Below are positions 16,610 to 20,346 of a stretch of DNA of 64,000 nucleotides, one piece after another (position 1 is the stretch's first letter; the number at the start of each line of letters is the position of its first letter). The stretch lies in NCBI RefSeq assembly GCF_030013595.1, contig NZ_CP122768.1; one strand, given 5' to 3'. This stretch comes from Escherichia coli. GTDB lineage: Bacteria > Pseudomonadota > Gammaproteobacteria > Enterobacterales > Enterobacteriaceae. Made by a program: the position numbers and the translations under genes. The notes below the pieces were generated by a model. The model was given only the letters and a program-made list of their open reading frames with translations, was not told the DNA's origin and ran no database searches.

Positions 16610-16729
16610 ACGCTGGCGAGAGAGTGAAAATGCGCTGTTTATTCGCCAGCAAATTCAGTCGTTATGTGCGGCAGAGCCGCTGCTTTCAGCATTTTCGCTG
16701 CTGACGTGAGTCGCTCTGTGCGCGCTTTT

Positions 16730-16840
16730 CCCCTCACCCTAACCCTCTCCCCAAAGGGGCGAGGGAACCGATCGAGCACGGTGTTAAAATCGGCGCTGGT
16801 TTTCTCCCCTCTCCCTGTGGGAGAGGGTCGGGGTGAGGGC
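16730..16840. repeat. GC-rich palindromic intergenic repeat, composite copy (near-identical to 6460-6570)
   Basis: cccctcaccctaaccctctccccaaaggggcgagggaaccgatcgagcac ... ctccctgtgggagagggtcggggtgaggg. Confidence 0.85.
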
Positions 16841-16888
16841 ATCAGCACGCACATTCATCACATTCACCCCTTAACTCACCCAGACACC

Positions 16889-19360
16889 ATGCCAACACAA
16901 ACCATCATCAAAACACTCGCCACCCACCGCGAAAAACCGTTTGTCAGCGTCGTCACGCCAACCTGGAACCGTGGCGCATTCCTGCCGTACCTGCTTTATA
17001 TGTACCGCTATCAGGATTACCCGGCAGACCGCCGCGAACTCATCATCCTCGACGACTCGCCGCAAAGCCATCAACACATCATCGACCGCCTGACCAATGG
17101 CACACCGGAAGCCTTTAACATCCGCTATATTCATCACCCGGAAAAACTGCCACTGGGCAAAAAACGCAACATGCTCAACGAACTGGCGAGCGGCGAATAC
17201 ATCCTCTGCATGGACGATGACGACTACTACCCGGCAGATAAAATCTCCTGGACCATCGCCATGATGCAAAAACATAGGGCGCTCATCTCCGGCTCCGACC
17301 AGATCCCCATCTGGTACAGCCACATCAACCGCATTTTCAAAAGCCGCAGCTTTGGCCCGCATAACATCCTCAACGGCACCTTTTGCTATCACCGTAACTA
17401 CCTGAAAAAGCACCGTTACGACGACGATAGCAATTTAGGCGAAGAGAAAAGTTTCACCAACAATTTCAGCGTTAACCCGCTACAACTGCCCGGCGAGCGC
17501 ACGATTCTGTGTATCTCGCACAGCCACAACACCTTTGATAAAGACTTTATTCTCGGGGCCAGCACGCCTGTAAACGCGGCGCTTACGGATATCGTCCGCG
17601 ATCCGCTGCTCCGCAATGCTTATCTGAGTCTGCATAACGCCACTCATCACCAGGCGATCAACCATCAGGCGATCGATCAGATCGTTCTGCTGAATCTGGA
17701 TAAACGCCCGGATCGCTTACAACAGATCCGTGAAGAACTGGCATTGCTGCATATTCCACCTGAGAAGATCACCCGCCTTGCCGCCAGTGAAGATCAAAAC
17801 GGTCAACGGGGTCGCCGCCAGTCGCACTTGCAGGCGCTGCGCCTGGCGCAACAGCACGGCTGGCAAAACTATCTGCTGCTGGAAGATGACGCGGTTATTC
17901 TCAAGCAGGAGAAACATATTCAGGTGCTGAACACGCTGCTGGCGAGCCTGGCGAAAATTCCCTGGCAGGTGATGATCCTTGGCGGCGAAATTTCGCAAGG
18001 AACTATGCTAAAAAGTTTGCCGGGGCTGGTGCACGCGCGGGACTGCCGCAAAGTGTGCGCTTATCTGGTGAACAGCCGCTACTACCCGCAACTGGCGCAG
18101 CAGATGAGCAACGATGAGCACTCGCTGGAAGCCTGCTGGCAGCCGCTGCTACACGCCGACAAATGGCTGGCCTGTTACCCGAGCCTTTGTTACCAGCGAC
18201 CGGGCTTTAGCGATATCGAGAAAAAAGTCACCGACAACATTAGTCACTATTTCAATAAGTTACACGTAACCACCAAGCCATCCACGTTACCCATCGCCGA
18301 CACCATCGGCTTTTTTATGGAAACCTCATTCCACTACGCGCTGTATCGCCCAATCATCACCGCTCTACAGGCGCAGGGGGAGAGCTGCACGCTGGTGATC
18401 AACGACCGCGTGTTTAAACCGTTTCTGGATGAAATGCTGGAGACGCTAAAAAGCATCGACGACCCACAGCTTAAAGGTATGCGCTTGTCTGAGATGCAGG
18501 CACACGGCCAGCGGATGAAATGCCTGGTCAGCCCCTACCACACGCCCGCGCTCAATGGCCTGGCAGCGGTGAACGTTCGCGCCATGTATGGCTTAGCCAA
18601 AGAAACGTGGAACCACGCCGACTGGAACCGTTTTTATCAGCGCATTTTGTGTTACAGCCACTACAGCCAGCAGGCGCTGGCGCATTTCGGTAGCGCAAAA
18701 GTGGTCGGCAACCCACGCTTCGACGCCTGGCATAACGGCACGTTCGACCGCACTCTGCCGGAAAATATCCAACCCGATTCCTGTAAACCTACGGTGCTCT
18801 ACGCCCCTACGTTTGGCGCACTAAGCTCCCTGCCCCACTGGGCAGAAAAATTAGGCCGCTTAAGTGGCAATGTGAATCTGATTTGCAAACTGCACCACGG
18901 CACCTGCTCGCGCCCGGAAGAAACTGCATCGCTGGCACTGGCGCGCAGGCATTTAAAACGGCGCACCGACTCCGCCCGCCACACGCTGGCGCTGCTGGCA
19001 AAGGCCGATTACGTGCTGACCGATAACAGCGGCTTTATTTTCGATGCTATTCACGTTGATAAGCGGGTGATCCTGCTCGACTTTCCGGGCATGAGTGAAT
19101 TGCTCGACGGCGAGAAAAGCTACTCCACGCCGGAGAGCGCCGATCAGCAAATCCGCGAAATATTGCCGGTGGCTCATGATATGGCAGAGTTGCGTTACTT
19201 GTTGTCAGAGGCGTTTGACTGGGGGGCGGTGCAGACACGGCTTAAGGAGATTCGTCATCACTATTGCGATGCGTTTATGGATGGCAAGGCGGGAGAACGG
19301 GCGGCGATGGTGATTGTTGAGGCGCTGGCGGACAAGGAACCGTCAGGGATATGTCGATAA
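16889..19360 (+). CDS. Three-domain glycosyltransferase: GT2 + GT25-like + TagF-like CDP-glycerol glycerophosphotransferase
   Basis: 823 aa from the ATG at 16889 (the longer ORF from 16664 runs through the repeat). GT2: VSVVTPTWNRG, ILDDS, CMDDDD. GT25-like: IVLLNLDKRPDR, LLLEDD. TagF-like: GNPRFD, VLYAPTFG, LTDNSGFIFD. Confidence 0.85.
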   Translation: MPTQTIIKTLATHREKPFVSVVTPTWNRGAFLPYLLYMYRYQDYPADRRELIILDDSPQSHQHIIDRLTNGTPEAFNIRYIHHPEKLPLGKKRNMLNELASGEYILCMDDDDYYPADKISWTIAMMQKHRALISGSDQIPIWYSHINRIFKSRSFGPHNILNGTFCYHRNYLKKHRYDDDSNLGEEKSFTNNFSVNPLQLPGERTILCISHSHNTFDKDFILGASTPVNAALTDIVRDPLLRNAYLSLHNATHHQAINHQAIDQIVLLNLDKRPDRLQQIREELALLHIPPEKITRLAASEDQNGQRGRRQSHLQALRLAQQHGWQNYLLLEDDAVILKQEKHIQVLNTLLASLAKIPWQVMILGGEISQGTMLKSLPGLVHARDCRKVCAYLVNSRYYPQLAQQMSNDEHSLEACWQPLLHADKWLACYPSLCYQRPGFSDIEKKVTDNISHYFNKLHVTTKPSTLPIADTIGFFMETSFHYALYRPIITALQAQGESCTLVINDRVFKPFLDEMLETLKSIDDPQLKGMRLSEMQAHGQRMKCLVSPYHTPALNGLAAVNVRAMYGLAKETWNHADWNRFYQRILCYSHYSQQALAHFGSAKVVGNPRFDAWHNGTFDRTLPENIQPDSCKPTVLYAPTFGALSSLPHWAEKLGRLSGNVNLICKLHHGTCSRPEETASLALARRHLKRRTDSARHTLALLAKADYVLTDNSGFIFDAIHVDKRVILLDFPGMSELLDGEKSYSTPESADQQIREILPVAHDMAELRYLLSEAFDWGAVQTRLKEIRHHYCDAFMDGKAGERAAMVIVEALADKEPSGICR

Positions 19361-19449
19361 AATTCGATTTTTTAAACATGTCGTTGGAATACGTTTATGC
19401 CATCGACATGTTTTGGCGATATGTCGAAAAAACACGATTTTTTAAACAT
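19348..19449. repeat. Two 32 bp direct repeats with an internal inverted repeat
   Basis: gatatgtcgataaaattcgattttttaaacat (19348-19379) and gatatgtcgaaaaaacacgattttttaaacat (19418-19449); catgtcg ... cgacatg inverted repeat between them. Confidence 0.85.
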
Positions 19450-19504
19450 ATTTAACATAGCCAAACGGCAGACGGCATCATCTTCTCTCACAGCGGGAAT
19501 TAAA

Positions 19505-19909
19505 TCAGTAGGTGGCTGATTTACCCCTAATCACCTCAATGATCCCCGTCGTCGACACCGACGGCGTGCGGGGGAAATACACCACCTCACAAATATACGC
19601 AAAGCTGTCAAACTTCCCTGCCCAATCATCACCCATCACCAGAATATCCGCACCGTACCCCCGCAGATACTCCGCTTTCTGCTCCAGCGATTCTTCCAGA
19701 AATACGCCATCCACGCACGCCAGCCCGGCGATGATCGCCATGCGGTCATCCTGATGGTAAACCGGCGCTCTGCCCTTTTTGGCAATATTTAAGGCGTCGG
19801 ACGATACGCCGACCAGCAGCCGTTCGCCCAGCGTGCGGGCGCGTTGTAAAAGGCGCAGATGACCGACGTGAAACACATCGAAGGTGCCAAAGGTGATGAC
19901 CGTTTTCAT
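19505..19909 (-). CDS. Glycerol-3-phosphate cytidylyltransferase (TagD-like)
   Basis: 134 aa from MKTVITFGTFDVFHVGHLRLL; MGDDWAGKFD and VVYFPRT match TagD-type cytidylyltransferases; start codon is 2 bp from the lfiJ stop. Confidence 0.85.
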   Translation of the reverse strand: MKTVITFGTFDVFHVGHLRLLQRARTLGERLLVGVSSDALNIAKKGRAPVYHQDDRMAIIAGLACVDGVFLEESLEQKAEYLRGYGADILVMGDDWAGKFDSFAYICEVVYFPRTPSVSTTGIIEVIRGKSATY

Positions 19910-19911
19910 GG

Positions 19912-20346
19912 CTACTCCGCTAATTTGTGCCGCAGCCAGCACTGAACGGCGATATCGTCCACCGCTTTTTGCGCTTTCGCGTTGGCGCTTTCCTGCTGCT
20001 CGCGGCGTTTGTCGTCCAGCGTCAGGGCCACCACTTTCTCTTCGCACGCCGCCGCCGTCAGGTTTTTCTGCATTCGCGTGGCTTTGATGTTAGCCAGCGT
20101 TTTTTCCTGCTCCTGCCATGCGATCACCTTGCGCAAAGTGCCTTTGTAGCCGCTGACGTTTTTCAGCGATTCCACCGACGCCGCCGCGCCCGCAGACGTT
20201 TTCTCCACAAGGTAGCCTAACGCCTTGATATTGTTGTCATAGCCCGCGCAGATCTGTTTTTGCTTTGCCAGTTCGACGGTTTTGTCTTTGACCGATTTAT
20301 CCCGCAGGCGCTGCAACTGCGCCAGGGTGTCGATGATTTGTCGCAT
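19912..20346 (-). CDS. lfiJ: Flagellar export chaperone FliJ
   Basis: 144 aa coiled-coil protein after the FliI ATPase. Confidence 0.8.
   Translation of the reverse strand: MRQIIDTLAQLQRLRDKSVKDKTVELAKQKQICAGYDNNIKALGYLVEKTSAGAAASVESLKNVSGYKGTLRKVIAWQEQEKTLANIKATRMQKNLTAAACEEKVVALTLDDKRREQQESANAKAQKAVDDIAVQCWLRHKLAE

Follow-up and report, generated by a model that had tools for sequence, protein, structure and literature searches.

Paired repeats between convergent Flag-2 genes of Escherichia coli are most likely the scar of a lost SoFic defence gene

What are two long, closely spaced direct repeats doing between a pair of convergent genes? In a 64,000-nucleotide stretch of Escherichia coli DNA (RefSeq assembly GCF_030013595.1, contig NZ_CP122768.1; hereafter the window), such repeats lie between genes for a glycosyltransferase (GT) and a cytidylyltransferase (CT), with an inverted repeat in the middle. 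The original prediction, made from the sequence alone, offered a pair of protein-binding sites, a small RNA or a recombination scar as explanations. Our comparisons lead us to conclude, with good confidence, that the element is a scar, made up of the orphaned distal part of the operator array of SoFic, a single-gene anti-phage system, together with fragments of a SoFic pseudogene. As such, it is an ordinary feature for this window.

The repeats match arrays upstream of SoFic genes

Our analysis bore out the predicted architecture, including the convergent glycosyltransferase and cytidylyltransferase flanks. The two 32-nt repeats match at 29 of 32 positions, start 70 nt apart and enclose a 10-bp inverted repeat; the catgtcg/cgacatg inverted repeat between them turned out to be part of a longer one:

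19348-19379, + strand: direct repeat 1 (GATATGTCGATAAAATTCGATTTTTTAAACAT), a module of the form ATATGTCGA-N14-TAAACAT with a TGTCGA box at 19352-19357
19418-19449, + strand: direct repeat 2 (GATATGTCGAAAAAACACGATTTTTTAAACAT), a second copy of the module with a TGTCGA box at 19422-19427
19374-19413, no strand: central inverted repeat (AAACATGTCG...CGACATGTTT), with arms at 19374-19391 and 19396-19413 that are 89% complementary

Each 32-mer is itself an imperfect palindrome (ATATGT...ACATAT). With up to three mismatches tolerated, the degenerate 32-mer has these two sites and no further copies in the 64-kb window, and 100 shuffles gave no match. Tandem Repeats Finder reported nothing in the window, because just 1.5 units of the array described below remain.

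A sensitive blastn search with positions 19340-19510 against 5426 complete E. coli genomes returned homologues at 77-89% identity, nearly all of them directly upstream of a gene for a 358-aa "protein adenylyltransferase Fic" and in unrelated genomic contexts. Judged by its domains and family matches, this Fic gene is SoFic, the known anti-phage system. Its Pfam architecture consists of Fic_N, Fic and SoFic-like_C, with a winged-helix domain at the C terminus; it matches the NCBIfam equivalog NF046030 (597 bits) and the PADLOC SoFic model (2e-122), and its matches in the PDB include 9vjc (EcSofic) and 3eqx. These domain and family matches make the protein an enzyme that transfers AMP rather than an RNase. 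Between E. coli and Shewanella, the SoFic proteins share 63% identity.

The intact array consists of three 32-bp modules separated by 38-bp spacers, giving a 70-bp period, and its third module ends in AAACAT directly before the ATG start codon of SoFic. Window positions 19349-19452 correspond to the first 1.5 units of this tandem array (repeat 1, spacer 1 and repeat 2). They are 87.5% identical to the array of an intact Flag-2 SoFic locus in E. coli AHM8C212RI (NZ_CP104613.1; locus L002), 77-80% identical to each unit of the 8.5-unit array in E. coli FDAARGOS_403 (NZ_CP023535.1; locus L001), which carries a common E. coli allele, and 71-82% identical to the arrays of 10 further enterobacterial loci. 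The window locus is variable region 1 of Flag-2, and its undeleted counterpart is found in Pseudocitrobacter faecalis DSM 27453 (locus L009), where GT, array, SoFic, CT and lfiJ follow one another, colinear with the window at 88-92% identity; the match at L009 1481-2433 is colinear at 88% and takes in the 3' end of GT as well. The order array, SoFic, CT is intact at the Flag-2 position in P. faecalis and in nine E. coli genomes.

Several further observations concern these comparison loci. In the Flag-2 copies, the SoFic stop codon overlaps the convergent 3' end of CT by 7 nt (L002 2742-2748; L009 3571-3577), which leaves no space for a downstream AS1 antitoxin gene. On the far side of the SoFic cassette, L002 1152-1442 holds a diverged (83-86%) partial copy of the CT and lfiJ ends, annotated as a frameshifted glycerol-3-phosphate cytidylyltransferase pseudogene, so that the cassette has CT-like sequence on both sides. 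In L001, an XRE-type helix-turn-helix (HTH) gene (681-977) lies immediately 5' of the 8.5-unit array; upstream of this gene is a separate 59-60-bp tandem repeat (204-379; three copies, 78% matches) whose sequence is unrelated to the SoFic units. Finally, E. coli JNE112863 (NZ_AP045072.1; locus L004) has an orphan partial match at 1470-1575, with two module-like repeats containing TGTCGA boxes and no adjoining SoFic sequence; the defence island around it includes genes for an AbiEii-family protein and an HNH endonuclease. We considered whether the HTH gene downstream of this match is a stand-alone SoFic C-terminal domain, and ruled this out as there is no real similarity.

Two deletions and the distribution of the relic

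Alignment of the window with the intact Flag-2 locus L002 resolves the region from repeat 1 into CT as follows:

19349-19452: array units, equivalent to L002 1501-1604
19452-19454: deletion junction 1, joining the array to about codon 316 of SoFic, with about 1012 bp lost
19454-19490, + strand: SoFic pseudogene fragment from the winged-helix domain, 97% identical to L002 2617-2653 inside fic
19490-19493: deletion junction 2, with 70 nt lost within the 3' end of SoFic
19494-19511, + strand: last SoFic codons (RELNQ) and stop codon TAG, overlapping the 3' end of CT
19493 onward: right flank, 96% identical to L002 2730-3171

Lost at junction 1 were spacer 2 with its promoter-like site, repeat 3 and most of SoFic. 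Positions 19454-19483 encode NIAKRQTASS, within a tblastn match that spans SoFic residues 316-327, and what remains of the coding sequence amounts to 37 nt plus 18 nt, in the appropriate frames. No intact SoFic gene is present in the 64-kb window. Because two separate SoFic coding scraps persist, we read the direction of change as loss rather than insertion. The element shares homology and box spacing with SoFic 5' control regions and does not lie directly 5' of a SoFic open reading frame (ORF); since that ORF is deleted, we count it as a family relic rather than a functioning member. Among the three explanations first proposed, a recombination scar thus came closest, and it can now be specified as the surviving 5' part of a SoFic cassette cut by two deletions, with coding scraps at its right.

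The same junctions bear on whether the repeats could be the end of a mobile element, that is, whether they mark an att site or a terminal repeat belonging to a SoFic cassette (or are a sequence resembling a miniature inverted-repeat transposable element, MITE), with the window as an excision footprint. Homology between unrelated SoFic contexts (Flag-2, an integrative and conjugative element with MobH, islands and plasmids) does begin exactly at repeat 1, and variable region 1 of Flag-2 is a known hotspot for the integration of cargo genes (PMC6993521). However, both the array and the fic ORF are cut internally by the deletions, at imprecise junctions that show no repeat, and there is a second, internal deletion of 70 nt. 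The far end of the cassette has no matching repeat and no integrase is adjacent; moreover, every homologue except L004 adjoins SoFic or a SoFic relic, and none is dispersed. We consider a mobile-element origin very unlikely.

Two other identities were rejected outright. Matches at "8 places per genome" resembled a dispersed repeat of the REP (repetitive extragenic palindromic), ERIC (enterobacterial repetitive intergenic consensus) or MITE kind, but these places turned out to be the eight units of a single array beside fic; in the closest genome there is just one place. The alternation of 32 and 38 bp recalls a CRISPR array, but in intact arrays the 38-bp spacers share homology, so that the repeating unit is the full 70 bp, and the neighbours of the element are GT, CT and lfiJ rather than cas genes.

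We found the relic in 107 of the 5426 E. coli genomes, intact Flag-2 SoFic in nine, and the long-array SoFic allele elsewhere in the genome in about 240. We term E. coli with the relic between GT and CT class A, and those with a REP pair at that place class B. The junctions are the same as those of the window in all four other class A E. coli examined in detail; one of these four, CB6837, has decayed further through a 7-bp deletion. The conservation of the element in related Flag-2 loci, proposed earlier as a check, is therefore mixed: it persists in these 107 genomes, and the rest of the roughly 680 with the same GT and CT have a REP/BIME (bacterial interspersed mosaic element) pair instead (about 575; 682 minus 107). 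In two examples of the latter, E. coli 1303 (L005 484-600) and SC477 (L006), the last codons of GT and CT also differ from the window allele, which indicates that the entire GT-CT intergenic segment was swapped, not the element alone. Beyond Flag-2, the array-plus-SoFic unit occurs on Pantoea and Cedecea plasmids and in the MobH-bearing integrative element, and 163 Salmonella plasmids carry the promoter-proximal part of the array with the 5' end of SoFic; of the 167 plasmids with a match, 151 are predicted to be conjugative.

The flanking genes of the window are arranged as follows:

16664-19360, + strand: glycosyltransferase ORF with a GT2 domain, whose last five codons and stop read into the relic
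19505-19909, - strand: TagD-like cytidylyltransferase, stop codon at 19505-19507; 405 bp in orthologous records
19912-20346: lfiJ (FliJ), beyond CT and followed by lfiI, lfiH and lfiG

The GT stop codon, TAA at 19358-19360, sits within repeat 1. In P. faecalis, GT ends at a TAA 3 nt ahead of repeat 1, where the window and class A E. coli read TCA, so the window ORF gains five codons (SGICR) and ends at the TAA supplied by the relic (19343-19360). Strain CB6837 has an earlier GT stop, also TAA. Overall, the window sequence is 99.9% identical to two pig isolates and about 95% identical to many other E. coli.

TGTCGA boxes as candidate SoFic operators

If the repeats descend from a SoFic control region, what would that region do in an intact locus? 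A scan of one genome per species yielded 80 SoFic loci, ranging from Enterobacterales to Acinetobacter, Comamonadaceae and an Acidobacteria metagenome-assembled genome (MAG). In many of them, Tandem Repeats Finder detected 70-72-bp or 40-bp arrays upstream of the SoFic ATG, at a distance of 0-70 bp (about 136 bp for the two 40-bp arrays). The hosts of these arrays include Enterobacterales, Providencia, Acinetobacter and the Acidobacteria MAG, and the number of units varies from 2.5 to 8.5.

We counted 302 TGTCGA/TCGACA boxes in the 300 bp upstream of the 80 SoFic genes, compared to 17.6 +/- 4.0 in dinucleotide shuffles (maximum 29). This is an excess of about 17-fold, and the density is 25 times that of the remainder of each locus. 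At least three boxes are present in 60 of 83 SoFic loci, and 39 of 83 have a forward box at -26 or -28; repeat 1 of the window has the same layout as their promoter-proximal module. Distances between neighbouring boxes are quantised, at 11, 21 or 51 bp for convergent pairs, 19 or 30 bp for divergent pairs, and 30, 40 or 70 bp for pairs in the same orientation. With the box read as the 7-mer TGTCGAT, these spacings fall near multiples of 10 bp, from which we infer that the boxes lie on one face of the helix. The window retains boxes at 19352 (+), 19403 (-) and 19422 (+), at spacings of 51, 19 and 70, which are the modal enterobacterial values. The second of these is the perfect reverse box TCGACA at 19403-19408 in the right arm of the inverted repeat, and the left arm has an imperfect box, TGTCGT, at 19380-19385.

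The extended box consensus is AYATGTCGATA, and the 32-mer of the window constitutes one module, with a perfect left half-site and a degenerate right half-site (TAAACAT) 21 bp downstream. In the promoter-proximal module of intact loci, the SoFic start codon is covered by the right half-site. The P. faecalis and E. coli arrays both have a sigma-70-like site, GTGACA-N17-TATGAT (TATTAT in L001), that overlaps the reverse box of the last spacer. Across eight genera, GTGACATG...CGACATAT recurs in most promoter-proximal spacers and is missing from distal ones; the spacer kept in the window is of the distal type only.

According to a 2026 preprint, S. oneidensis SoFic binds DNA from its own upstream region, within the first 100 bp, as a dimer and not as a monomer, and does not bind composition-matched control DNA (bioRxiv 10.64898/2026.07.09.737422). 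The bound fragment F1, as given in the supplementary table of that preprint and compared here with locus L085, holds ACATGTCGATTGAATCGACAT and TTATGTCGATAAAAGAAGGTTTTTTTAAAC. Based on these comparisons, the repeats of the window are most likely orphaned SoFic operator modules, and the best-supported mechanism is that the boxes are operator half-sites, with binding by the E. coli protein inferred. The suggestion of a pair of protein-binding sites was thus probably right as to origin, given the homology to SoFic-upstream TGTCGA modules, although the cognate gene is gone here. More generally, the phased array of TGTCGA boxes is likely the SoFic operator; our literature search for repeats or an operator upstream of SoFic found no description of one.

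In intact loci, a module, a 38-bp spacer, a second module, a spacer with the sigma-70-like promoter and a third module lead into the SoFic ATG. Each module is a wide palindromic site, with ATGTCGA followed after about 13 bp by a degenerate TAAACAT or TCGACAT. In the model that we propose for these loci, the winged-helix domains of a SoFic dimer would bind the boxes. Since the boxes coincide with the -10 region, the putative transcription start and the start codon, binding would repress the toxin gene; the upstream units may serve as auxiliary sites. Wild-type EcSofic is toxic on expression (PMC12249575), which makes tight autorepression plausible. In the lineage of the window, sequence comparison shows that the two deletions took almost the whole of SoFic along with the third module and the spacer that bears the promoter. 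The remaining operators, with no SoFic in 64 kb, most likely do nothing specific; two incidental effects are left, the stop codon supplied to GT and a hairpin with a U-run downstream of GT.

That hairpin could matter in its own right. The central inverted repeat (19374-19413) folds at -16.7 kcal/mol on the + strand (z = -3.3), where UUUUGG follows directly, and at -16.9 kcal/mol on the - strand (z = -5.7). After the loss of SoFic it might have been co-opted, together with the A/T hairpins of the repeats, to terminate GT and perhaps, weakly, the convergent CT, a role that would be added to the origin proposed here and would not replace it. The left arm in class A, ACATGTCG, is fully complementary to the right arm, and in the majority of homologous units the match is no better than ACATATCG; in the class B allele, REP hairpins take up this position. 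On the other hand, a consensus terminator scan made no call; the earlier judgement that this is not a simple terminator was a fair one. Furthermore, the - strand stem is followed by UUUAAAAAA and no U-run, and across homologous units the hairpin is just 63% paired, equal to shuffles. We regard a terminator role as possible but doubtful.

The pairing data also speak to a structured small RNA, or a ToxI-like RNA antitoxin array whose transcribed repeats would act as RNA. Intact loci do have a tandem array of varying copy number directly upstream of a gene that is toxic as wild-type EcSofic, and folding z-scores are -3.4 and -2.6. However, an Rfam scan of 18800-20000 (E <= 10) gave chance-level matches only (best E = 0.12, with 23 bits against a gathering score of 120). 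Over 24 homologous units the window hairpin is 63.0% paired, compared to 61.8% in shuffles, with no excess covariation, and RNAalifold pairs only the invariant boxes, with a covariation term of +0.2. Across phyla, conservation resides in the primary sequence TGTCGA, phased at about 10 bp, and not in pairing. The promoter-like site inside the last unit means that distal units would not be transcribed with the gene, and SoFic transfers AMP and is not an RNase. The proposed small RNA is thus unsupported, and we consider an RNA function highly improbable.

Might the orphaned operators still work, bound in trans by a SoFic encoded elsewhere, as a decoy or a roadblock that modulates GT and CT expression? 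All three perfect boxes are kept in every class A sequence examined, roughly 240 E. coli genomes have another SoFic allele, with a long array, elsewhere, and the class A strain AST240 has a second array-like place. Nevertheless, the window has no SoFic gene, and a genome 99.9% identical to it has one array-like place only. In class A genomes compared with the window, the relic is 96% conserved, the flanking genes 90-95% and the dead fic fragment 98%. Conservation of the dead fragment at least as well as the relic argues against a box-specific constraint, and we judge a surviving function of this kind to be very improbable. For the same reason, comparing the relic with the flanking genes was uninformative as a test of constraint. 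Across window positions 18860-19909, compared with L007 and L088-L090, Flag-2 GT and CT diverge by 5-10% among strains that share the relic, which is high for E. coli, and the relic and dead fic fragment diverge by just 2-4%; this suggests a recombination mosaic around the scar.

Some observations weigh against our interpretation of the element as an inert operator scar. Within the 300 bp upstream of SoFic, 10 of the 83 loci contain no exact copy of the box. No clear Shine-Dalgarno sequence is seen in the enterobacterial modules, and the putative promoter was assigned from a consensus scan only. The published binding assay maps 100 bp and names no motif (bioRxiv 10.64898/2026.07.09.737422). 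The central hairpin of class A forms a better stem than other units do, which leaves some small room for a secondary role as a terminator. Finally, the relic is conserved slightly above the flanking genes, which could hint at constraint, but the still higher conservation of the dead fic fragment points to a recent common origin of the segment rather than to constraint acting on the repeats.

Taken together, the odd repeat structure in the window can be explained as the scar of a lost defence gene, and nine intact copies against 107 relics in 5426 E. coli genomes show that the Flag-2 variable region turns over defence cargo. The comparison also yields a concrete candidate for the SoFic operator motif, AYATGTCGATA boxes with a phasing of about 10 bp in 70-bp units, for a widespread toxic defence enzyme for which published work places binding within the 100 bp that precede its gene. 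A more speculative idea, which we think improbable, is that the lattice of boxes, with its 2.5 to 8.5 units conserved between Acinetobacter and E. coli, may serve as an undescribed multi-dimer DNA platform integral to SoFic defence. It would shut off the toxin gene and hold SoFic dimeric and DNA-bound, by analogy with Coxiella CbFic2, whose activity is switched by DNA binding; phage-induced release would then arm the enzyme, and orphan arrays might act as decoys that shift the threshold.

Comparison with known systems

The closest described system is SoFic itself. The gene deleted from the window is of the same family as the PADLOC and DefenseFinder "SoFic" and as EcSofic with its AS1 antitoxin (PMC12249575), and published descriptions present SoFic as a single gene with or without a small downstream antitoxin; the upstream array goes unmentioned. 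In fragment F1 of S. oneidensis SoFic (mloA), TTATGTCGATAAAAGAAGGTTTTTTTAAAC stands directly before the ATG and is the module of the window 32-mer (ATATGTCGATAAAA..TTTTTTAAACAT), and F1 also has the ACATGTCGATTGAATCGACAT pair. Unlike F1, the window has no gene downstream, keeps the distal 1.5 units only, and has lost the promoter-bearing spacer.

The E. coli REP/BIME elements resemble the window element in that hairpin-forming repeats lie between convergent genes. The window element differs in its unrelated sequence, its AT-richness, its lack of dispersal and its linkage to SoFic.

ToxI-type arrays of type III toxin-antitoxin systems are likewise variable-number tandem repeats directly upstream of a toxic gene. 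In contrast to these, the SoFic array has a 70-bp unit in which a DNA box rather than a fold is conserved, it contains a promoter-like site in its last spacer and runs up to the ATG, and its toxin belongs to the Fic AMP transferases and not to the RNases. We thus do not assign it to the ToxI-like group.

The proposed autorepression most resembles that of CccR, a Fic-HTH toxin of Yersinia pseudotuberculosis, which acts on 10-bp inverted repeats, set 26 bp apart at the -35/-10 region, to repress its own promoter (PMC9755527). In both cases, a dimeric Fic protein with a C-terminal DNA-binding domain would act on widely spaced inverted repeats upstream of its own gene. CccR is a distant relative of SoFic: among 11 PDB matches at E <= 1e-10 there was no CccR structure, and the sole non-SoFic Fic chains scored about 1e-11. 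The two also differ in their sites, as the CccR operator reads AGATAATCAT-N26-ATGATAATCT and occurs once, with no 70-bp tandem array, whereas SoFic genes are preceded by ATGTCGA boxes repeated at spacings of about 10n bp.

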